In this document: in pieces, positions 161 to 33,691 of the stretch | Layout: the number at the start of each line of letters is the position of its first letter | Position numbering within the stretch: the stretch's first letter is position 1 | Origin: a virus | Lineage: Duplodnaviria > Heunggongvirae > Uroviricota > Caudoviricetes | Virus record (IMG/VR): IMGVR_UViG_3300045988_180316 | Strand: one strand, 5' to 3' | DNA: 37,769 bases | The notes under the pieces: model-generated | Seen by the model: only the letters and a program-made list of their open reading frames with translations | Told to the model about the DNA's origin: nothing | Databases searched by the model: none | Position numbers and translations under genes: made by a program

Positions 161-192
161 TTTGGTGGGGTCGGAAAAAAGTCGTACCTTTG
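161..192 (+). promoter_or_regulatory. Bacteroidota-type promoter for the tRNA (-33 TTTG, -7 TAccTTTG)
   Basis: TTTG at 161-164, a 20-nt spacer, then TACCTTTG at 185-192. The tRNA starts about 30 nt downstream. Confidence 0.55.
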
Positions 193-223
193 CACTCGCA
201 ATTCAGAAATGAGTTGATTATAT

Positions 224-299
224 CGCGGTGTGGAGCAGTTGGTAGCTCGCCAGGCTCATAACCTGGAGGTCGCATGTTCGAGTCCTGCCGCCGCAACCA
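224..299 (+). tRNA. tRNA-Met (anticodon CAT), initiator-like
   Basis: Cloverleaf read by hand: acceptor CGCGGTG/CGCCGCA, D-arm GAGC..GCTC, anticodon arm CCAGG-CTCATAA-CCTGG, T-arm GCATG-TTCGAGT-CCTGC, encoded CCA. The C1xA72 mismatch and A11:U24 are initiator hallmarks. It aligns position by position with E. coli tRNA-fMet. Confidence 0.9.
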
Positions 300-415: not shown

Positions 416-1579
416 ATGACTGCAAAAGAAATTGATTTTTTGAGCTCGCGTGAAATAGTAGGTTTCACGCTGCCTGTGTTGCATACCAAGGGCGGTTACT
501 GGTATGTTGACTTTACTGCCTTTGACCCTGTCTCGGGTCGGATGAAGCGCAAGAAGTACATGCTTAATAGGTACAAGACAGACCACAAGAAGCGTATGAT
601 GGGTACCTTGCTTATCCACAATATCACGGCAAAATTGACCGCTGGCTGGAATCCTTGGGTGAATGCCGACAAGTCGAGACAATTCACTGAAATACCAATT
701 ATCTTTAGTCGTTATCGTGATTATATTAAGTCGATGACCGACAAAAAGTCGATGAAGGAAAAGACCTCTATCGACTACCTCAGCCGCCTCAAGACTCTGG
801 AGTCTTTTATCTCTGAGTGCAAGAGTGTCAAATATGCCTATCAGATTGACCGTGCCTTTGCCATCGACTTCTTAGACCACCTGATGTATGACCGTGATGT
901 GAGTGCTACCACAAGAAACAACTATCGCTCTTGGCTTGTGTCCTTCGGCACTTGGCTTATGGATAGAAAATATATCAGCGAGAACCCTGCCATCGACATC
1001 AGAAACATCGCTCAGAAGGAGAAGTTCAGAGACCCTTTGACCGAGGGCGCACTTAAGAAGCTGAAGACTTATCTCTATGATAACAACAGACATTTTCTCT
1101 TGGCTTGCCTCTTTGAATATTATACCTTTATCCGACCGAATGAGTTGACGCAGATAAGAATCAAAGATGTGTCGATTGCTGACCAGACGGTCTTTATCAG
1201 TTCTGCCATCAGCAAGAACCGTAAGGACGGACTTGTGGCATTGAACGATGAAATCTTGAAGCTCATGATAGAGCTGAAGATATTTGAGCATCCGGGACAT
1301 TGTTTTATCTTTGGCAAGGGTTTGAAGCCCGGAGAGGAAAGAGCACCTTATAATCAGCTGAGAGTGGAGTGGGGTAAGATGAGAGATGCGATTGGGTTTC
1401 CGAAGGAGTATCAGTTTTATAGCCTGAAGGACACTGGCATCAGGGATTTGGCGAACGCACAGGGTATCGTGGTCGCCAAGGATCAGGCACGCCACTCTGA
1501 TATATCTGTGACGAATCGATATATCAAGAACCAGATGAAAGTGAACGAGGAGACCAAGCACTTCAAAGGTGGGCTTTAG
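416..1579 (+). CDS. int: Tyrosine recombinase / phage integrase
   Basis: 387 aa. The C-terminal catalytic region reads ...YSLKDTGIRDLA...ARHSDISVTNRYI (box II His/Arg and nucleophile Tyr). The position next to a tRNA fits an integrase. Confidence 0.9.
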   Translation: MTAKEIDFLSSREIVGFTLPVLHTKGGYWYVDFTAFDPVSGRMKRKKYMLNRYKTDHKKRMMGTLLIHNITAKLTAGWNPWVNADKSRQFTEIPIIFSRYRDYIKSMTDKKSMKEKTSIDYLSRLKTLESFISECKSVKYAYQIDRAFAIDFLDHLMYDRDVSATTRNNYRSWLVSFGTWLMDRKYISENPAIDIRNIAQKEKFRDPLTEGALKKLKTYLYDNNRHFLLACLFEYYTFIRPNELTQIRIKDVSIADQTVFISSAISKNRKDGLVALNDEILKLMIELKIFEHPGHCFIFGKGLKPGEERAPYNQLRVEWGKMRDAIGFPKEYQFYSLKDTGIRDLANAQGIVVAKDQARHSDISVTNRYIKNQMKVNEETKHFKGGL

Positions 1580-10926: not shown

Positions 10927-12501
10927 TCACGTGAATTTATAGAACTTCTTTTTGAACTTATTGTGAAGCTCTGCGACCACGGTGGAGAAGGGTAGCTCGT
11001 CACGACAGAAGTCGTTGAGGGCTTGGTCTATCAAGATCTTGGAGCCTGTATAGAGGTAGTGCTCCTGAGGCTGCCATACCTCGGTGCCGTCTGGCTCCAG
11101 GTGGTCGATGATGCGATAGCGAAGGGAGAGGCGCTTCTTGGGTACCTCTTTGGTGACCATGTGGGTGGAGCCGTCCGGGGCGGTCTCCTCTTGCTGGATG
11201 GTCTCCTTCTCTATCACCGAGTCATCGACCTTGTAGTCTATCACTTGGACGAGGAACTTGTTCTCGTCCTGACCCTCACGGCAGATGATGTCCTCGATGG
11301 ACTGCTGCTGTGATTTCTCCATACCGTCAAAAGGCACGCGCGCACGGCGAGCCTTGACGAGTTTACCGAATCTTTCCATACCGATTTTCTTATATAAGTG
11401 TTTTGAGTTTGCGTGGATGCCCAGTCCTAGGCGAGAGGCTGCCTTGATCTGTATCTGACGGTCTGTGAAGCCCGCCTTGCGTAAGTTGGCAATCTGTTTG
11501 CAGAGGTCGTGCTTGAACCGCTTGCGCAGCAGGGCGTGGTCAGCGTAGATGATCTGACCGCAGAAGTCGATGCCATCGCAGGTGCGGTGGATACCCCAAG
11601 ACTTATTGATGGATAGGTGCCAGTCACGGGCGAGGTGCATCACGGCAAGCTCTGCCATCAGCCTGAGGAACACCTTATCCTCGTGGAGGATGTAGATGTT
11701 GTCCATGAAGCGGTAATAATGGCGAAGACCTTGGCGGCAGAAGCGCTCGAACCTATCGTTGAGCGACTTCACCCCCCCACATAGCAGCTGAGCTTGCTGC
11801 TGAGTGCGACAGGTAACGAGCATGTCGCTCACGTAGCGAGCCTGCCAGTAACGGAACTTGTCGGTGTCTTGGAGAATGTCGAAGCATCGGAGTGCCAGGT
11901 AATCGAAGCGGGCGAGGAAGAGCTGACCCAAGAGTTGGGCGAGCTTGACGCCGAGCACGATGCCTGGATTGAAGCTATCGACCACCTCGTCGATGAAGGC
12001 GAGGAGCTTGCGGTCTTTGATCTTGCGGCGATATTCACTTTTGAGAAGAGCGTGGTCTATGCTCTGAAAATAATGGTGAATATCCATGGGCAAGCAGTAG
12101 AAGGTATCTTGCTGTGGCGAGTTGAAGATGTCTCGCTTGACAAGATTATAGAAATAATGGGTGCCCTTGCCCTTGGAACCAGCCGGACTGTGGCTGTAGA
12201 GTGTCTTGCGAAGGTTATCCTCTACAGGTTGCAGGGCAGCGTGCTGGATGACGTGGTCGATAACGGGCAGCTTGTTGACTTGGCGATGTTTTGGATAGTC
12301 GATATCTTTGGCGACATAGGCTGAGGTATGCCAAGTTTGTTGGGTGTAAGCATCGAGCATGCGTCCGATGTTATGGTCTAGGTTTGCCTCGAATTTTTGG
12401 ACCGCACGGCGAGACATCTTTTGTCGGGCGTAGTCATAGAATGCCCGACGAAAGTTGTCTAGTGTCTCGACCTGTGGCGATATGTTGCCAAACCTTTTCA
12501 T
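10927..12501 (-). CDS. DGR-type reverse transcriptase (atypical)
   Basis: 524 aa from ATG 12501. RT motifs: KLPVIDHVIQHAAL, SPAGSKGKGTH, CLPMDIHHYFQSIDH (motif A Asp), GIVLGVKLAQLLGQLFL (DGR-like motif B), YYRFMDNIYIL (motif C), IDFCGQIIY..LLRKRF. It lies next to a TR/VR pair. Confidence 0.88.
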   Translation of the reverse strand: MKRFGNISPQVETLDNFRRAFYDYARQKMSRRAVQKFEANLDHNIGRMLDAYTQQTWHTSAYVAKDIDYPKHRQVNKLPVIDHVIQHAALQPVEDNLRKTLYSHSPAGSKGKGTHYFYNLVKRDIFNSPQQDTFYCLPMDIHHYFQSIDHALLKSEYRRKIKDRKLLAFIDEVVDSFNPGIVLGVKLAQLLGQLFLARFDYLALRCFDILQDTDKFRYWQARYVSDMLVTCRTQQQAQLLCGGVKSLNDRFERFCRQGLRHYYRFMDNIYILHEDKVFLRLMAELAVMHLARDWHLSINKSWGIHRTCDGIDFCGQIIYADHALLRKRFKHDLCKQIANLRKAGFTDRQIQIKAASRLGLGIHANSKHLYKKIGMERFGKLVKARRARVPFDGMEKSQQQSIEDIICREGQDENKFLVQVIDYKVDDSVIEKETIQQEETAPDGSTHMVTKEVPKKRLSLRYRIIDHLEPDGTEVWQPQEHYLYTGSKILIDQALNDFCRDELPFSTVVAELHNKFKKKFYKFT

Positions 12502-12710
12502 AAGCGGTGTAATGTCTGTGTTGAACGGTGTATAAACTGTGTATAGTCTGAATCGTCTGCTTTTGTACACTTGATAACCTTCGACCGGATGACCGTGTTG
12601 TCATCATCTACCAGCTGTCTTATTGATGTGTATGTATCGCCATGGGGCGAGGATTGACCCTGTAATCTCGAAGTGGGAGCAAACGACCCACGAAGAGATA
12701 TGTCTGTAAG

Positions 12711-27647: not shown

Positions 27648-28073
27648 TTAAACATACTGTAGAACTGGTCTATCTATCAAGAGTCCAGTATCTATATCTC
27701 CTTTAACTTTTGCTATACCTTGTCTAATTTTCTCCAAGCTTTTGCCTTGTGGTACCTTGATGCCTGCTGCATATTGTCGAAGCAACGAGGCGTTCATGCC
27801 GATATACTTGGCGAAGGCTGAGATACTTAGAGGATAGTAGTTGAAAAATGCCCCAACATCGAAGACGAAGTGAAACTCCAAGTCTGGGTACTCCTTACCT
27901 TCCTCCTCATAGAATTCTCTCATTTCCTTATCTGCAATGAGGAAATCTTCCATAGCAGCCTTTGCGGTCTTGCCGTCACCAATAAGGCCAAACGTCAAGT
28001 CATCAGTCCCAGTCATGAAGCAAGAATATAAATCCTTGCCAGACTCCACTACAACAGTAACTTTTCTTGCCAT
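27648..28073 (-). CDS. hicB: HicB-family antitoxin (N-terminal HicB fold plus C-terminal HTH)
   Basis: 141 aa: MARKVTVVVESGKDLYSCFMTG...TAKAAMEDF... with a C-terminal HTH-like ISAFAKYIGMNASLLRQYAAG. It lies downstream of hicA. Confidence 0.75.
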   Translation of the reverse strand: MARKVTVVVESGKDLYSCFMTGTDDLTFGLIGDGKTAKAAMEDFLIADKEMREFYEEEGKEYPDLEFHFVFDVGAFFNYYPLSISAFAKYIGMNASLLRQYAAGIKVPQGKSLEKIRQGIAKVKGDIDTGLLIDRPVLQYV

Positions 28074-28149
28074 ATCTTTCTATATATAAAGTTCATAATC
28101 AAAAGTGTCCTTCTTGCATACCAAGAAAATCATGGAAGAAGAACCTGGG

Positions 28150-28332
28150 CTAAAGCCCAAGTTCTTGATAGATAGATTTCAGAGTGCGAATATTCACCTC
28201 TTCAGTTCCATGCCGAGGAACGGCAGTGCTCTTCCCATTGGCTGGGTTGAACCAAATGTCGTGTCGGCCTCCATGACGAAGTAGAAAGCATCCCGCTTTC
28301 TTTAACTTCCGATACAGTTCACTGTATTTCAT
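28150..28332 (-). CDS. hicA: HicA-family mRNA interferase toxin
   Basis: 60 aa from ATG 28332: MKYSELYRKLKKAGCFLLRHGGRHDIWFNPANGKSTAVPRHGTEEVNIRTLKSIYQELGL, the typical HicA pattern. The track start at 28407 lies upstream of the promoter. Confidence 0.85.
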   Translation of the reverse strand: MKYSELYRKLKKAGCFLLRHGGRHDIWFNPANGKSTAVPRHGTEEVNIRTLKSIYQELGL

Positions 28333-28376
28333 AATCTCAGTATGTTTAAAGAACACTTTGTCCTTATTGGACGATG

Positions 28377-28408
28377 CAAAGGTAACAATAAAGTTATAAA
28401 TAACCAAA
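28377..28408 (-). promoter_or_regulatory. Full Bacteroidota promoter for hicAB
   Basis: Plus CAAAGGTA at 28377-28384 and CAAA at 28405-28408, with a 20-nt spacer. Confidence 0.6.
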
Positions 28409-28576: not shown

Positions 28577-29263
28577 TTATAGCTTTCCCTTGTCGTGGTA
28601 GCTGTAGAAGCCATCCTCGGCTAAGATGATGTGGTCCATCAAGAAGAGTCTCATCACCTCGCACGCCTTGGCTATCTTCTGCGTGAGCATATCGTCCGCC
28701 TTGCTCGGCTGCGTGCTGTTCGATGGGTGGTTGTGCGCCACGGCGATGATGGTTGCGTTGTTGAGCACGGCTTCTTTCATTATCAGCCTTATGTCCACCG
28801 CTGTGTCGGTGATGCCTCCCTCGCTGAGCTTCACACTCTTTATCAGTCTGAAGTTTTGGTTCATCAGCACTACCCAAAAGCCCTCTGTCTCATTGCTTCC
28901 CATCATCGGGCGAAGATAGTTGTAGAGTGCTAGGCTGCTGCCTAGGTCGGTATTACGTGCCACCTTTTCCATTTGGTAGCGTCTGCCTAGCTCGATGGCT
29001 GCCTGTAGGGCTATCGCCTTGCAGTCGCCGATGCCTGGTACCACCTCTAGGTCTTCGATTCTCGCCTTGCCGATATTGCGAAGTGAGTTGTCCATGATGT
29101 TATAAATCTGTCGTGCCTGCTCTTGGCTGTCCTTGGTACCTGCCCCTCTGTTGATTACCAAAGAAATCAAGTCAACGTTGGTTAGGGTGTCGAAGCCTTG
29201 GTTATAGGCTCTGTACTGCGGTCTCTCCTCCATACAAAGGTCGTTATAATTTTGTCGTATCAT
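28577..29263 (-). CDS. radC: RadC-like JAB/MPN-domain protein
   Basis: 228 aa with an HhH-like GIGDCKAIALQAAIELGRR and a JAMM motif ...ATIIAVAHNHPSNSTQPSKADDMLT.... Confidence 0.85.
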   Translation of the reverse strand: MIRQNYNDLCMEERPQYRAYNQGFDTLTNVDLISLVINRGAGTKDSQEQARQIYNIMDNSLRNIGKARIEDLEVVPGIGDCKAIALQAAIELGRRYQMEKVARNTDLGSSLALYNYLRPMMGSNETEGFWVVLMNQNFRLIKSVKLSEGGITDTAVDIRLIMKEAVLNNATIIAVAHNHPSNSTQPSKADDMLTQKIAKACEVMRLFLMDHIILAEDGFYSYHDKGKL

Positions 29264-29279
29264 AGCTATATTGTTTTAA

Positions 29280-29804
29280 TTAGTTATACATTCTCTTGGT
29301 TCTCGCTAGGAACATCGCTCCCATCACTTGTGCGCCACATTCTGCTAGCTCGTTGGCGAACTCTCGGGCGGTCGCACCGCTTGTCACCACATCGTCGAAG
29401 ATGATGACTTTCTTTCCGTTGAAATACTCTCTATCGAGTGCCACTCTGTAGTCGAAGCTCTCGCACACTCTGTCGGCGCTGAAGTGCTTTGCCGTGCGCT
29501 CGCCATAGATGGAAATGTGCTCGCTTCCGTTCTGTACCTTTGCGCCTTGGCTCACCTTTTGGGCGAAGCGAGAAAAGCGCTTGTTGTACTTCTTGGAGTT
29601 GGCTGCTGGTGCGCATACCATCACGAAGTCGCTGGCTTTGTCGCCATAGGTGTTGACGAAAGAGCTGACCACCATATCGGCTGCGGCGTCTGTCGCCCAC
29701 TGCTTGCCATCCTTGAAAGCAAAGATGAAGTTTCTCACTTGCTCGGCTTGCGCTGAGCGGTCGAAACGCTTGGAGTTGTACTCGTAATAATTGAAAGTTT
29801 TCAT
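29280..29804 (-). CDS. ComF-like phosphoribosyltransferase (type I PRTase domain)
   Basis: 174 aa with the PRPP-binding loop GKKVIIFDDVVTSGATAREF. It lacks an N-terminal zinc finger. Its stop lies 16 nt upstream of the radC ATG. Confidence 0.75.
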   Translation of the reverse strand: MKTFNYYEYNSKRFDRSAQAEQVRNFIFAFKDGKQWATDAAADMVVSSFVNTYGDKASDFVMVCAPAANSKKYNKRFSRFAQKVSQGAKVQNGSEHISIYGERTAKHFSADRVCESFDYRVALDREYFNGKKVIIFDDVVTSGATAREFANELAECGAQVMGAMFLARTKRMYN

Positions 29805-30596
29805 ACGCTCAAAATTTTTATTCTAGCCAGAGGGAGGAAGGAGCTTTTTGTTTGAACTCGTCTTTGCCTGCCCGTCTGAGAGTTTTTTTTATTCTGTCCG
29901 TCGGTCGTTTTTGTCGCTTTTTACGGTGCGATGCAGACGAGCGGAGAAGAGGTATGAAAGCCAAGGAATTTTGCAAAAAGTTTATGGAAAACCGCCATCT
30001 CTGATTGCGGAAGGCTGCCGAAAAGTTTTTGGAAAATAGATTTATCGGTACTTGGTGCATACCATCCGCCGTACCTTTGCACCCGAAAAAGAGATAATGA
30101 CCGATGGATAACCGATAAAGGGAAAAGCTCTCGGACAGGAAAAGCGGGCAAAGAAAAGGCTCTGCCTTACCTTGGTGGTTAAGCCTTAGCGACGTTTGAG
30201 CGCCATCACGGTCACCACCGCTTGAAAATTCGCAAATTTTAACCCTAGCGTATGAAATGAAAGATGGAAAATTTGCGTCATCAAAAACACCATGTTTTTC
30301 AGACTTCAGGAGGAAAAACATACCTTGGAGCGATGAAATCGCAGCATTTGGCAGGCTTCGACCCCGAGGTTGAAGATGCCAAATGTGTCGTTTTACGACA
30401 GGTTTTCCACACCCACGGATTGGAAAACCCCGATTTTATCGTGGTTTTAGGGATTCAAAGGGAAAATAATTCCCCTTTGTCGGCGATAGCACCCCCCACC
30501 GCCCTACGCCCGAGGGCGCCTTCCGCCCCCTTGGAAAAGACGGAATATGTAAAAGACCGTTAACGTTTTTGTAGGAATGTAAAAAGCCAAAAGGCA
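29805..30596. other. 0.8-kb region without convincing coding potential; GGAAAA/TGGAAAA motif array; candidate large ncRNA or protein-binding array
   Basis: Only junk-like ORFs occur here. GGAAAA appears 9 times on the plus strand (29986, 30031, 30121, 30138, 30266, 30312, 30422, 30461, 30533), and 5 of these extend to TGGAAAA. One inverted copy forms the 9-bp hairpin GGTTTTCCA-N11-TGGAAAACC (30401-30429). Confidence 0.45.
30072..30079 (+). promoter_or_regulatory. Lone canonical -7 box (TAccTTTG) on the plus strand within the non-coding region
   Basis: TACCTTTG at 30072-30079. No good -33 box is present, and no minus-strand -7 box occurs anywhere in 29805-30700. Confidence 0.3.
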
Positions 30597-30633
30597 CGAA
30601 AAAAGGGAACACGCTTCGCAGCGCACTCCCCTT
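30597..30633 (-). terminator. Rho-independent terminator after terL
   Basis: Minus strand reads AAGGGGA..CGCU-GCGA(GNRA)-AGCG..UUCCCUU followed by U6. One pair is G-U only on the minus strand. Confidence 0.6.
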
Positions 30634-30701
30634 ATCGGCGGTCAAGCAAGAATGCCAGCCACCTAACTTATATAAGAATCGTACTATCTAAAGAAATCAA
30701 A

Positions 30702-32303
30702 CTATAGCATGGAACCCGTGGCGATGTAGCCATCAGCCTGAGGGTATTTCTCCATGCCAATCATGAGCGTGTCGTAGGCATCGGAGCCATCGGTGCGAGC
30801 CTCCAACTTATCCTCCTCGGTCTCTGCCAGCTTCTCGCCTCGCTTATCCTTCTTGCCGTTGTAGACCCCGGCCAGGCGGATGGAGATGAGCAGGTCTTCG
30901 TTGTTCTCGCTGTTGATCATCGAGCGATGCTCAGCCTTGCCGAGGAACATGCGGTTGAGCAGAAGCATCTTTTCGAGATGTCCCATCGGGTTGCCCAGAT
31001 AGACCTCGTTGACATACCAGCCATGGTCGGTGAGGTAGTCGGTGATGAAGGTATGGAAGTCATCGTTCATCAGGGCGTAGTTGTTGCCCACGAAGGTGGA
31101 GTCGTAGTAGAAGTTGACCTCCTTGCACCGATGGTACTCATAGTACTGCATGAACTTGTCGAGCAGGGCGGGCAGCTTCTCCTCATACTTCACGAAGATG
31201 CTCTTGAGGCAGCGTGCCTCGCCCCGCAGGTTGTCTTGTCCGACGGCTATCCAGTTGATGAGGGCGTTGGCATCGAAGGCGATGCAGAGCGGACGGTCGG
31301 GGTCAACGTCGGCATCCATTCTGGAATCTACATGCTTGAGCTTGTCGATGTCGTAGCCTAAGCCATCGAGGTAGGCGAGGTTGGGCGCCGTGTATAGGTT
31401 GGCATCCCTGAGGTTGGAGTAGAAGCCATCGAGCGAGATGGAAGGCCGCTTGCACATGATGGAGGTCTGGAAGGTGAGGGCAGGGAGGTCTCGCTTCATC
31501 TGCTTGATGAACTCCATGCCGAGCACCTCGATGTTATAGACCGATGAGTACTCTTTATAGAAGAGTGCCTTGGAGCGCAGTTGCGCCAGGAGCTGACCAA
31601 TCTCTCGGAGTCGGCGCTGGGCATAGCCTGAGACATGGCCCGAGGTCTTGATGCGGTTGCGTATGTCATACTCCTCTACCACGAGCGAGGCGATGGCGTC
31701 GATGAGCAGCTGGTCGCAGTCTTTCTTGTAGTTGAGGAACCAGGAGCCCTTCTTGGTCACGGGCATATCAGAGGTGATGAGCATGCCATGGTGGTAGTAG
31801 TGCTGGCCGAAGAGGTTGACGTTGCCTCGATTGGCAGGGAAGGTCTCGTCTTTGAGCTGTTCGAAGTTGATGAACTTCGCCTCGTCGATGTCGAGGTAGT
31901 CGAGCGAGAGGGAGTTGGAGGTACCCTTGCGGTCTTGCGAGATGATGGTACCGATGGAGCCGTTATAGAAAGAGATGGTGTTCTCCCAGTTGCTGGGCGG
32001 TATGACCGGGTCGGGCCATCCCAGTTTTTTGGGAGGCTTGACCCCGATGAGATAATGCTTGCCCCGGTGGAAGCCCCATCGCTCCCAGTGCTGAAGCATC
32101 GACGGTATGGTGTTGGTGAGGCATCGCTTGGTGTTGGCGGATACGAAGCCGCCGTTGCTGCCAGGCATGCGCTGCATGTTGCGCAGGTTGAAGGTGGCGT
32201 GGAGAATGCTCTTGCCGATGCCTCGACCGCCCACGACCACGTTGTCGCGGGCGGAGATGAGGTTGACCTCCATCTGGGCTGGGTTGAGATATTGATCTAT
32301 CAT
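30702..32303 (-). CDS. terL: Terminase large subunit
   Basis: 533 aa with Walker A VVVGGRGIGKS, Walker B-like LDYLDIDEAKF and a C-terminal nuclease-sized domain. Confidence 0.88.
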   Translation of the reverse strand: MIDQYLNPAQMEVNLISARDNVVVGGRGIGKSILHATFNLRNMQRMPGSNGGFVSANTKRCLTNTIPSMLQHWERWGFHRGKHYLIGVKPPKKLGWPDPVIPPSNWENTISFYNGSIGTIISQDRKGTSNSLSLDYLDIDEAKFINFEQLKDETFPANRGNVNLFGQHYYHHGMLITSDMPVTKKGSWFLNYKKDCDQLLIDAIASLVVEEYDIRNRIKTSGHVSGYAQRRLREIGQLLAQLRSKALFYKEYSSVYNIEVLGMEFIKQMKRDLPALTFQTSIMCKRPSISLDGFYSNLRDANLYTAPNLAYLDGLGYDIDKLKHVDSRMDADVDPDRPLCIAFDANALINWIAVGQDNLRGEARCLKSIFVKYEEKLPALLDKFMQYYEYHRCKEVNFYYDSTFVGNNYALMNDDFHTFITDYLTDHGWYVNEVYLGNPMGHLEKMLLLNRMFLGKAEHRSMINSENNEDLLISIRLAGVYNGKKDKRGEKLAETEEDKLEARTDGSDAYDTLMIGMEKYPQADGYIATGSML

Positions 32304-32929
32304 AGTGCTTTGTCCTCCTTGACTTCTTCTGTAGGTGTATATTCCAAGAGCTGTTCGTCGTAGTCCTCGGCCTCGATCTTGACGAGATCCATGGAGTTGT
32401 CGGTGTATTTCTTGACGAGCTTCTTGATGGTCTGCATCACGTTAGGGATGCGCTTGAGACCCAAGTGTCGTGGGTCGGTGGTAGGGATGAAGACCTGAGG
32501 CTGAATCTGGTCGTAGCCGTTGTCGGTAGGATCCTCTTTGTCGAGCAGGTGATATTTGCCGTATGCCGCTGCGGCGGCAGCCATGGCCCGGGCATCGCCC
32601 ACGGAGTCGGCCTTGTCGTAGGTGCGCTGTATCATCTGGTCGAAGCGATAGCGGGCGAAGTCTTTTGACACTTTTTGCAGGTTGCCCAATATGAGCTTGA
32701 TGAGGTGCAGGTCGTTGTAAGCCATCATGCGCTGCACCTTGTAGTCGTGCATATCTTTATAGACCAGCTCTTGGTCGCTCTTGCGAGGGTTGATGAGCCA
32801 CCAGGCATAGAGGGCACGGATGCGCAAAATGCGGTCGCGCACTGGGGCGGGCACATTTTGCGCATCCATCTCTTCGGGTGTGCGGTCCATCAGTTCGATG
32901 ATGGCATCGATGTTGGCGGGTTCTCTCAT
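32300..32929 (-). CDS. Putative terminase small subunit / packaging accessory
   Basis: 209 aa, translationally coupled (ATGA) to terL. The call rests on position only. Confidence 0.4.
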   Translation of the reverse strand: MREPANIDAIIELMDRTPEEMDAQNVPAPVRDRILRIRALYAWWLINPRKSDQELVYKDMHDYKVQRMMAYNDLHLIKLILGNLQKVSKDFARYRFDQMIQRTYDKADSVGDARAMAAAAAAYGKYHLLDKEDPTDNGYDQIQPQVFIPTTDPRHLGLKRIPNVMQTIKKLVKKYTDNSMDLVKIEAEDYDEQLLEYTPTEEVKEDKAL

Positions 32930-33207
32930 ATTCTAATCTCCTCTAACATTTGGTTCAGATATTCGTGTGTGCGCTGCACCGCCTGTGGCGAGCCAGCCGC
33001 AGCCAGGTCTAGCTCGTTTTTGCGTATCTGCTGGCGCACCGTCGCCATGCCCAAGTAATAGACACGGTGAAGCTCGGAGTCGGGCTTCAGTATCTCGTCA
33101 CGCAGATCGTCCTCGCTAATATCCAAAAGGACGGACATCTCGGATATCGGAGTCAACGTCTCCGCGAAGTCTTGCACTTTTTTGAGTAATTCCTGAGAAA
33201 TTTCCAT
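32926..33207 (-). CDS. Small HTH-like protein in the packaging operon
   Basis: 93 aa. TPISEMSVLLDISEDDLRDEI resembles an HTH. The start has an ATGA overlap with the downstream gene. Confidence 0.45.
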   Translation of the reverse strand: MEISQELLKKVQDFAETLTPISEMSVLLDISEDDLRDEILKPDSELHRVYYLGMATVRQQIRKNELDLAAAGSPQAVQRTHEYLNQMLEEIRI

Positions 33208-33691
33208 TGATTCTTAAGCTTTGAGTGTCACAATGTAGGGTATATCCGCCGAAGAGGTCGGCGAAGACCTGCGGGTCGGTGGTGATGATGGTTGACTCGT
33301 CTCGGCTGCCATAGGTCTGGTTTTGCGAGGTGACGACCGACACGACGTGCTGGTCGTTGCGGAAGAGTGTCACCTTGGAGTGGTTTTGCCCCAGGAACAC
33401 ATCGTCGAAGCAGGTCTGCATCATGCGCCACAGCTGCACGGTCTTCTTGCTCGCCTTGACATCGAGCAGCATCGTTGCCGACAGGATGCTGCCCGACTGG
33501 CGCATCAGGCGGAAGCCACGCAGGAACTCCTCGGAGGTGGAGTAGGAAGACACCCACACATCTGCAGGACCTATCTGGGAGAGAATCCACTTGATGAGAC
33601 CGAGGGTGTGGAGGTGTCGCCCGAAGTAGGCTTGCGTCTGGGCATCGGCGATGGGACGGAGCAGGTCACTGACCTTGACCTTGGTCGGCAT
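33116..33691 (-). CDS. HKD (phospholipase-D superfamily) nuclease-like protein
   Basis: 191 aa. NHSKVTLFRNDQHVVSVVTSQNQT resembles a single HxK...(G/T)SxN motif. The 3' end overlaps the next gene by 92 nt. Confidence 0.4.
   Translation of the reverse strand: MPTKVKVSDLLRPIADAQTQAYFGRHLHTLGLIKWILSQIGPADVWVSSYSTSEEFLRGFRLMRQSGSILSATMLLDVKASKKTVQLWRMMQTCFDDVFLGQNHSKVTLFRNDQHVVSVVTSQNQTYGSRDESTIITTDPQVFADLFGGYTLHCDTQSLRINGNFSGITQKSARLRGDVDSDIRDVRPFGY

Follow-up and report, generated by a model that had tools for sequence, protein, structure and literature searches.

The packaging (cos) sites of the lambda, HK97 and P2 type are built around a short G+C-rich block beside the terminase genes, and in lambda and HK97 they lie upstream of the small terminase gene. 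The early promoters of coliphage N4 are hairpins with stems of 5–7 bp, which are recognized by the virion RNA polymerase with the help of SSB. Promoters that work on single-stranded DNA (ssDNA) of a more extended kind, Frpo and ssi, are found on the conjugative plasmids F and ColIb-P9 (PMC9849209; PMC11541004). Here, we describe a non-coding gap in the genome of a tailed phage (Caudoviricetes; IMG/VR record IMGVR_UViG_3300045988_180316; 37,769 nucleotides, nt, referred to below in its entirety as the window) that can be compared with all of these. The gap (29805–30701, 897 nt) extends from the start codon of a phosphoribosyltransferase (PRTase) gene (29804, minus strand), which is followed by a RadC gene, to the stop codon of the large terminase gene terL (30702, minus strand).

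An original prediction, made from the sequence of the window alone, had identified a strand-specific array of GGAAAA motifs in this gap and offered three readings of it: a large structured or protein-sponging RNA, terminase recognition sites (cos or pac) next to terL, or the regulatory region of the PRTase-RadC operon. The comparative results below point to two independent, conserved elements that act at the level of DNA, a probable cos site and a proposed ssDNA hairpin promoter, accompanied by the terL terminator. For this combined description, we consider the arguments for and against to be about evenly balanced, and its parts differ in strength, as set out in the following sections.

A cos-like core downstream of terL

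The locus was compared across more than 250 related contigs; a search with terL gave 72 viral contigs. The whole gap was 77%–98% identical in approximately 34 of these 72, and its terL-proximal 460 nt were also kept in contigs with other cargo in place of PRTase-RadC. The spread of this core was followed with a pattern derived from its best-conserved block, then with a profile search, and then with a looser pattern (more than 120 stretches matched). The profile search located the core in the L057–L072 clade as well, where it stands after RadC. Overall, the core was present in at least 34 sequence clusters, with Phocaeicola, Bacteroides, Segatella, Paraprevotella and Muribaculaceae as hosts. 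Strains that harbor it include Segatella salivae DSM 15606, Bacteroides mediterraneensis Marseille-P2644, Bacteroides ilei Marseille-P3208 and Phocaeicola acetigenes KGMB11183. It was always downstream of terL in a constant orientation, and what precedes it is either the terL terminator itself or a PRTase-RadC cassette inserted in between.

Three boxes characterize the core. Box1 (30402–30410; GTTTTCCAC on the plus strand, GTGGAAAAC in the sense of terL) lies within the 5' arm of hairpin H6 (30401–30429, plus strand), follows the consensus (A/T)TTT(C/G)CAC, is often duplicated in tandem, and is found ~88 nt from Box2 in all lineages. Box2 (30491–30510; ACCCCCCACCGCCCTACGCC, or GGCGTAGGGCGGTGGGGGGT in the sense of terL) is the predicted cohesive-end (cosN-like) cleavage site, and its nearly invariant center, CC(C/T)CCACYGCCCTRCGC, is kept in phages with a terL only 51%–63% identical. 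A spacer of fixed length with a lineage-specific repeat, together with Box3, occupies 30511–30553. Box3 itself (30541–30553, CGGAATATGTAAA) has the consensus GCGG(A/T)ATATGTAA on the plus strand of the window, and the distance from Box2 to Box3 was 30–32 nt in 255 loci.

The ~88 nt between Box1 and Box2 consist almost wholly of one to three hairpins, the sequences of which are unrelated between lineages. In the window, these are plus-strand hairpins within 30431–30490, namely H7 (30431–30441), H8 (30456–30479) and a weak equivalent of P2 (30483–30490). P2 is a 5-bp stem abutting Box2 that covaries between lineages (GUCGG/CCGAC, GUAGC/GCUAC, GUCUC/GAGAC and GUCAA/UUGAC); across eight hand-picked sequences, this stem was 100% paired, with double changes in three of its five pairs. 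A further array of local plus-strand hairpins, H1 to H5 (30231–30278, 30292–30321, 30330–30342, 30345–30385 and 30386–30400), has conserved stems and variable loops, including compensatory changes in H4 (CATTTGGCA/TGCCAAATG, CATTTTGCA/TGCAAAATG, CATTCGGCA/TGCCGAATG). Two of the stems listed in the original prediction, GGTTTTCCA-N11-TGGAAAACC at 30401–30429 and CAAAGGG..CCCTTTG at 30456–30479, correspond to H6 and H8 and are conserved in relatives. The third (CGCCCT..AGGGCG, 30500–30518) does sit inside invariant Box2, but its pairing is not kept in relatives.

Surrounding Box2 are 7–10-mers that are specific to each lineage (AATTGCC/GGCAATTGCC, GACTTGCC, CTAATTAG, GTAATTAC and ACTTTCC; also ACTTGCC). 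One copy is always ~25 nt past Box2, more are found beyond Box3, and inverted copies lie 125–240 nt away on the Box1 side, an arrangement that appears typical of protein-binding sites on duplex DNA. Repeats of the GGCAATTGCC/GATTGCC type form clusters of three to seven around the core in L057, L060, L063 and others (~70–110 nt after Box2 and 125–200 nt before it), with other words in other lineages, and such lineage-specific repeats are candidate small-terminase sites. At the terL end of the gap is an intrinsic terminator of terL (30598–30631, minus strand; stem 30604–30631, T-run 30603–30598). Its stem covaries between lineages (GGGGAGTGCGC..GCGTGTTCCC versus GGGGAGTTCGC..GCGGACTCCCC), and the T-run is present on the minus strand only. 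A short element, GGCGGTCAAGCAAGAATGCCAGCC (30637–30660), stands between the terL stop codon and this terminator and is conserved in the close clade, with variable flanks. In most lineages, the first minus-strand -7 box to follow lies 220–380 nt past Box2 in the direction of Box1, and the core is thus bracketed by the terL terminator and a downstream promoter.

A link to a physical genome end comes from Polaribacter phage Leef_1, whose terL is the nearest among cultured phages (27% identical across 96% of its length) and for which HK97-like proteins and "Cos 3'" ends predicted by PhageTerm are reported (PMC8776804). The Leef_1 record continues for 83 nt beyond the terL stop, closing with TTTCATATTATC-N31-tCGTAGGCCACGGCGTTGT, and it opens with ATTTGAGTGCAAAATG. 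The layout at this end, CATATT-N31-CGTAGG, is shared by the core, ~80–190 nt after terL, and the Box2 homologue CGTAGGCCACGGCGTTGT is the last sequence of the record. Order and spacing are equal to those of Box3' (CATATTCC), a 30–32 nt spacer, Box2' (GCGTAGGGCGGTGG...) and then a Box1'-like GTGCAAAAT, which comes after the Leef_1 genome end. The terminal 18-mer of Leef_1 is G+C-rich in a genome of 30% G+C, and Cellulophaga phage Ingeline carries CCATAGGCCAAAGGTTTGT at the position matching the Leef_1 box. The box motif was absent downstream of terL in Flavobacterium phage 6H, Bacteroides phage BT-TP2, a P. gingivalis phage, a Microcystis phage and MT835542. Only three related contigs ended within 1.2 kb after terL; contig L066 stops at ...GAGCGTAG (directly after GCGTAG) inside Box2, at a point where its relative L067 continues with GGCGGTGGGGGC. 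Exact matches to the terL protein were confined to long prophage-bearing contigs and hence were silent on genome ends. Searches of deposited phages by BLAST with the gap and with the Box2–Box3 stretch gave no informative match, and nothing relevant to the box sequences was found in the literature.

Judging by these sequence comparisons, 30402–30553 is probably the cos site of a large family of temperate siphophages of gut Bacteroidales. By homology, Box2 would be the site nicked by terminase, and Box1, Box3 and the surrounding lineage repeats would serve as recognition sites for packaging proteins. The termini are predicted to lie inside Box2, near GCGTAG and on either side of the GGCGGTGGGGGGT that follows it, leaving a 3' overhang of ~10–13 nt. 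Several observations weigh against this assignment. A single contig end falls in Box2, the Leef_1 ends are a prediction, and its terL is only distantly similar (27% identity). Moreover, the P1 and P2 hairpins beside Box2 covary and the Box1–Box2 hairpins show a mild wobble bias on the plus strand (20 G.T versus 6 A.C, counts that are not independent), and a protein-binding site on duplex DNA accounts for neither.

Compared with described sites, the core resembles cos of the lambda/HK97/P2 type in having a short, G+C-rich and invariant block by the terminase genes despite diverged terminases, and its flanking, lineage-specific repeats of candidate binding sites would match a cosN plus cosB organization. 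It differs from lambda and HK97 in being downstream of terL, and from all three types in that its 88 nt between Box1 and Box2 are filled by covarying, lineage-specific hairpins. The earlier suggestion of terminase recognition sites next to terL therefore survives in the form of a cos-like site with three boxes, but this site is not defined by the GGAAAA array, of which only the TGGAAAA copies at 30401–30429 coincide with a conserved box (Box1). If the cos assignment is true, it provides the packaging site and genome ends for very common uncultured temperate phages of Phocaeicola, Bacteroides and Segatella, and would aid in orienting genomes, recognizing complete ones and spotting the cargo hot-spot beside cos.

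A long hairpin with an embedded promoter upstream of PRTase

The PRTase-proximal part of the gap contains a ~290-nt imperfect inverted repeat (29861–30154, plus strand), which we term module X, with arm A at ~29861–29960 and arm B at ~30045–30154. It was found directly upstream of PRTase in every lineage with PRTase, the PRTase itself being 33%–44% identical, and was absent from related phages with other cargo at the PRTase-RadC position. The window and L073 types are arranged as terL-core-X-PRTase-RadC; in L057, L075 and L084 types, the arrangement is terL-X-PRTase-RadC-core. Roughly 110 unique copies of X were obtained. All contexts found for X were phage or prophage, with terL within ~400 nt. 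Two metagenome contigs (L329 and L338) have X followed by RadC alone, without PRTase, and in L066 and L067 RadC comes directly after terL, without X or PRTase.

The plus strand, which is the template strand of PRTase-RadC, is the one on which module X folds much better. Using DNA parameters, the fold of 29856–30160 had an energy of -61.6 kcal/mol on the plus strand (z -5.5) and -42.5 kcal/mol on the minus strand (z -2.4). Folds with RNA parameters gave plus and minus energies of -173 and -129 kcal/mol for the window, -182 and -146 for L073, and -182 and -143 for L075. Both strands fold into one long hairpin, and the plus strand is always the more stable, by 10–44 kcal/mol. Mismatches between the two arms on the plus strand comprised 197 G.T versus 99 A.C in 21 clusters. 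An alignment of nine divergent copies yielded 101 pairs; 93% of cells were paired, and many pairs were invariantly G.U on the plus strand. Compensatory changes were detected in 32 of the 101 pairs, compared with 12.5 ± 2.3 in shuffles (none of 500 reached 32) and 6–13 in slid controls.

Arm B contains a promoter of the Bacteroidetes type (30052–30079, plus strand), with the -33 TTG at 30052–30054 and the -7 box TACCTTTG at 30072–30079. It fits the Bacteroidetes sigma-A form (-33 TTTG / -7 TAnnTTTG), a motif used by other genes of this genome: TANNTTTG (TAnnTTTG) is enriched in the window (38 versus 14.7 expected) and occurs 17–28 nt before many minus-strand start codons (e.g., 7938, 20298, 25661, 27444 and 37310). 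The promoter was present as CTTGG-N15-22-TAnnTTTGCA at a fixed distance, 365–484 nt before Box2, in 62 loci, with a TTG-to-TAccTTTG spacing of N17–19 in the distal arm. In duplex DNA it faces away from PRTase, whereas in the folded plus strand, by geometry, it faces into PRTase. Within the fold, arm A pairs with the -33 region and with the spacer, which covaries between lineages. The -7 box is either bulged at its TA (a 4-nt bulge, TTTA) or wholly contained in an internal loop, and pairing is perfect over the first 15–20 transcribed bases. The minus-strand copy in the proximal arm is without a -7 box. As the original prediction had stated, a conventional promoter for PRTase is not evident, with no TANNTTTG on the minus strand between 28385 and 37309, whereas other cargo genes at the PRTase position in related phages do carry such -7 boxes. 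For this host, a scan for sigma-70 promoters and terminators was uninformative.

We are confident that X is a selected plus-strand hairpin with an embedded promoter. How it functions is a more tentative matter. We read X as Frpo-like because its features are the set that defines the Frpo/ssi promoters (PMC11541004, PMC9849209), and that it acts as an ssDNA promoter of this kind for PRTase-RadC, with transcription from the folded strand, is a real possibility that we place a little short of even. Under such a mechanism, the plus strand would fold into a ~130-bp imperfect stem. Distal arm B, bearing a complete host -33/-7 promoter in which the -7 TA is unpaired from the outset, would be the non-template strand, and proximal arm A would be the template. 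RNA polymerase would then move toward lower coordinates, exit the base of the hairpin at ~29861 and run along the plus strand, producing a sense mRNA for PRTase-RadC. The 5' end of this mRNA would be expected at about 29920–29930 (minus strand), facing a predicted plus-strand start at about 30086–30090. In the duplex state, the promoter would fire the opposite way and leave PRTase without one. The plus strand might become single-stranded during rolling-circle replication, by end resection (e.g., from the nearby cos end) or through cruciform extrusion. Somewhat less assured again is the wider proposal that X is a genuine ssDNA promoter of a tailed phage, which would make it the first such promoter known beyond conjugative plasmids and the first to use Bacteroidota -33/-7 boxes. 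It would switch on a ComF/ShosT-like PRTase and RadC only when their template is single-stranded, and the cos-side hairpins, which share its plus-strand bias, would be part of that same state.

The likeness of X to Frpo/ssi is one of architecture, and sequence homology is not expected given that promoter type and phylum differ. Both are long imperfect stem-loops of a few hundred nt on the template strand of the downstream genes, and in both the stem rebuilds the two host promoter boxes so that they face downstream genes that have no ordinary promoter. The cargo of X also fits, loosely, the establishment, anti-defense or toxin-antitoxin kind. Unlike Frpo/ssi, which belong to the leading region of conjugative elements, X is in a tailed phage or prophage. 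Its boxes are -33 TTG and -7 TAnnTTTG (those of a Bacteroidota host) rather than -35/-10, and its promoter is complete in duplex DNA as well, where it faces outward. By analogy with the N4 early promoters, X may depend on a DNA hairpin of the template strand, but its stem of ~130 bp is far from the short N4 stems and carries a host sigma-A-type promoter.

Other observations argue against an ssDNA promoter. In metagenomes, 87 of 87 matches to one X sequence type (searched with an L057-type pattern) were in a phage context and none were in conjugative elements, and tailed double-stranded DNA phages are not known to enter cells single-stranded. The inverted repeat could stay similar through gene conversion, the 2:1 wobble asymmetry is possibly due in part to strand-biased mutation, and the duplex promoter in X may simply make plus-strand RNA.

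That last point can be extended into an alternative that spans the gap, in which the duplex promoter at 30052–30079 drives a non-coding RNA (ncRNA) of several hundred nt from the plus strand, through the hairpins and boxes and antisense into terL, for example as a regulator of late or terminase genes in the lysogen. Such an RNA would account for a canonical promoter kept at its distance in the 62 loci, for an A-rich, transcript-like plus strand past it, for the excess of G.T over A.C in the plus-strand stems between Box1 and Box2, and for several P2 loops that are GNRA on the plus strand. We nonetheless regard it as unlikely. The L057, L075, L141 and L225 types, in which the core is not beside X, keep the boxes and hairpins without a plus-strand -7 box upstream of Box1; no plus-strand terminator is evident, and Rfam gave no matches. 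In addition, an RNA started at the X promoter would lack arm A and so could not form the X hairpin, the covariation of which is the strongest signal, and the lineage-specific palindromic repeats (e.g., GGCAATTGCC) and the match to a physical genome end indicate DNA. A -7 box antisense to PRTase was considered as a source of RNA from the whole plus-strand hairpin and rejected because it is not conserved. Of the relatives with identities of ≥86%, some keep this perfect box (TACCTTTG, 29535–29542, plus strand, inside PRTase); it is absent at 83%–86%, and in part of the L073-type lineage it occupies a different position.

Two further alternatives concern the role of X itself. It could be the structured 5' leader of a PRTase-RadC mRNA that arises by read-through from terL, with a minus-strand RNA hairpin for processing or attenuation. 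The missing promoter of PRTase, the placement of X directly after the terL terminator in L057 and L075 types, and the ability of the minus strand to fold, at a lower score, are compatible with this. However, the invariant G.U positions of the plus strand become invariant A.C mismatches in the sense RNA, the minus-strand fold is 10–44 kcal/mol the weaker with a z of only -2.4, a good terL terminator stands ahead of X, and the perfect promoter in arm B is left unexplained, so that a leader seems improbable, more so than the ncRNA. Alternatively, X could be a signal of the ssi/sso type, where the folded plus strand recruits RNA polymerase to make a rolling-circle primer and PRTase expression is incidental. 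Its structural features would be identical to those of an ssDNA promoter, and for Frpo, roles in transcription and in primer synthesis have both been described (Masai and Arai 1997, as cited in PMC11541004). The strict linkage of X to a PRTase-RadC (or RadC-only) cassette rather than to replication genes, and its absence from related phages with other cargo there, make this, in our estimate, marginally less plausible even than the leader.

An ssDNA promoter of the Frpo kind is thus the reading that we retain for X, and it bears on two of the original proposals. A regulatory region for PRTase-RadC is upheld for the PRTase-proximal 350 nt, where X travels with PRTase in every lineage, although the role is likely that of a hairpin promoter and not of an RNA leader. 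A large structured or protein-sponging RNA is not borne out, as there is no Rfam match at E ≤10, the GGAAAA sites are not conserved, and no conserved promoter could yield the whole folded plus strand as RNA. If the hairpin promoter is true, ssDNA promoters, so far known from conjugative plasmids, are not peculiar to those of Proteobacteria but are used by phages of another phylum, and phages let the physical state of their DNA govern when a toxin-like or DNA-processing cassette is expressed. Three other candidates were dropped: attP, since 29 kb separate the element from the integrase and tRNA-Met and since it has an internal position in integrated prophages; an inverton, since the promoter is inside an arm rather than bracketed by short repeats and was observed in a single orientation; and a retron msd, since there is no adjacent reverse transcriptase.

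GGAAAA motifs and coding potential of the gap

The strand-specific motif excess that first drew attention to the gap is real. GGAAAA occurs at nine plus-strand sites (29986, 30031, 30121, 30138, 30266, 30312, 30422, 30461 and 30533) and once on the minus strand (30403), and five of the nine plus-strand copies extend to TGGAAAA, as originally reported. Dinucleotide-preserving shuffles of the gap (n = 2,000) gave expectations of 1.27 for GGAAAA and 0.29 for TGGAAAA, and no shuffle attained the actual counts of 9 and 5. On the plus strand, AT skew also becomes positive at ~29950, unlike in the flanking minus-strand genes. The array is not conserved, however. Relatives at ≥94% identity have 8–10 copies of GGAAAA and those at ~80% identity have 3–5, with the motif not retained across the latter at seven of the nine plus-strand sites, kept in all at 30422 and kept in some at 30533. 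Over the same alignments, hairpin stems persist, with variable loops and compensatory changes. A global RNAalifold run on 50 close relatives missed the local hairpins.

The individual copies can each be placed. Those at 30121 and 30138 are within the purine-rich arm B of module X, paired with T-runs of arm A, and those at 29986 and 30031 are in its central part. The copies at 30266 and 30312 are in or beside the 3' arms of H1 and H2, the minus-strand copy at 30403 and the plus-strand copy at 30422 are Box1 and its hairpin partner, and 30461 is inside H8. The copy at 30533 lies in the Box2–Box3 spacer, where other lineages carry a TTTGAAAAA-like sequence. The strand specificity arises because the plus-strand hairpins have T-rich 5' arms and A/G-rich 3' arms, which pair with one another (including through G.T wobbles), and the GGAAAA excess is mostly a by-product of these purine-rich 3' arms.

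A true array of sites for one protein (a small terminase, an origin-binding protein or an RNA-binding protein) would explain why the motif is so strongly enriched in this genome, would be in keeping with TGGAAAA being, on the opposite strand, the universal Box1 motif, and would have a parallel in the repeats that other lineages have around Box2. Given that seven of the nine plus-strand sites are not kept in ~80%-identical relatives, that most sites are in hairpin 3' arms where the stems and not the motif are conserved, and that only 30403 (minus strand), 30422 and in part 30533 are conserved, we hold such an array to be very unlikely, slightly more so than an ssi/sso-type signal. The gap does share with the GGA-motif RNAs CsrB and RsmZ a strand-specific excess of a short purine motif over several hundred non-coding nt. 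It differs from them in that motif positions are not conserved, there is no defined transcript and there is no Rfam match, and a protein-sponging RNA of the CsrB/RsmZ type was rejected on the grounds of motif positions and Rfam. To our knowledge, Bacteroidota lack CsrA.

A small protein is the least probable of the explanations that we considered. The largest open reading frame (ORF) in the gap (30264–30563, plus strand, 99 amino acids, aa) is predicted by gene callers, is annotated as a gene in public assemblies (also in L288, 4741–5040) and is open in most close relatives. Its variability by codon position is flat (0.31/0.38/0.41), it is cut short or frameshifted in approximately 7 of 50 unique relatives (some frameshifts being compensated), other lineages have no equivalent ORF, and its conserved "residues" are the hairpin stems and Box2. 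We therefore rejected it as a spurious ORF overlying these features. None of the gap ORFs had a sequence match in Pfam, PHROG, NCBIfam or PDB, and no plus-strand ORF downstream of the X promoter is conserved. The original statement that the gap is non-coding thus stands: a conserved coding gene was looked for, and what was found were flat codon variability, broken ORFs and no protein family. Rfam 15 likewise gave no match in 29700–30800 at E ≤10 and none at gathering score in five other loci.

Neighboring genes and other features of the window

The cassette next to module X (28577–29804) consists of two minus-strand genes. PRTase (29280–29804) matched Pfam Pribosyltran, an NCBIfam ComF family (7.7e-8, below cutoff) and PADLOC ShosT (3.9e-10), and a search with the protein returned close relatives only. 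RadC (28577–29263), of a DNA-processing family, matched the Pfam and NCBIfam RadC families. From these assignments, a ComF/ShosT-like PRTase paired with RadC could be a toxin-antitoxin or defense-type module. Downstream of RadC, the window also has a HicA toxin (Pfam, 1e-12) with a probable HicB partner (27648–28407, minus strand). From terL to the following structural genes extends a cargo hot-spot, the content of which differs between related contigs.

On the other side of the gap, terL (30702–32303, minus strand) was identified by tblastn through annotated large terminases of Microcystis, Porphyromonas and Bacteroides phages, and a candidate small terminase lies at 32300–32929. Two genes upstream of terL is an endonuclease-like ORF of 191 aa (33116–33691, minus strand) with a weak match to a PHROG "endonuclease" (3.8e-5) and no match in Pfam or PDB; terL likewise had no PDB relative by sequence. 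If HNH-like, the 191-aa ORF would fit cos packaging of the HK97 type.

Elsewhere in the window, a tRNA-Met (185–299, plus strand) with its own TACCTTTG box stands beside a tyrosine integrase (416–1579, plus strand), and this end looks like a prophage attachment end, ~29 kb from the cos-like site. Rfam matches outside the gap were a tRNA and an RT-17 RNA (12553–12654, minus strand; 59 bits, E 3e-9). The latter is directly upstream of a 547-aa ORF (10927–12570, minus strand), with which it probably forms a reverse-transcriptase element, e.g., a diversity-generating retroelement.

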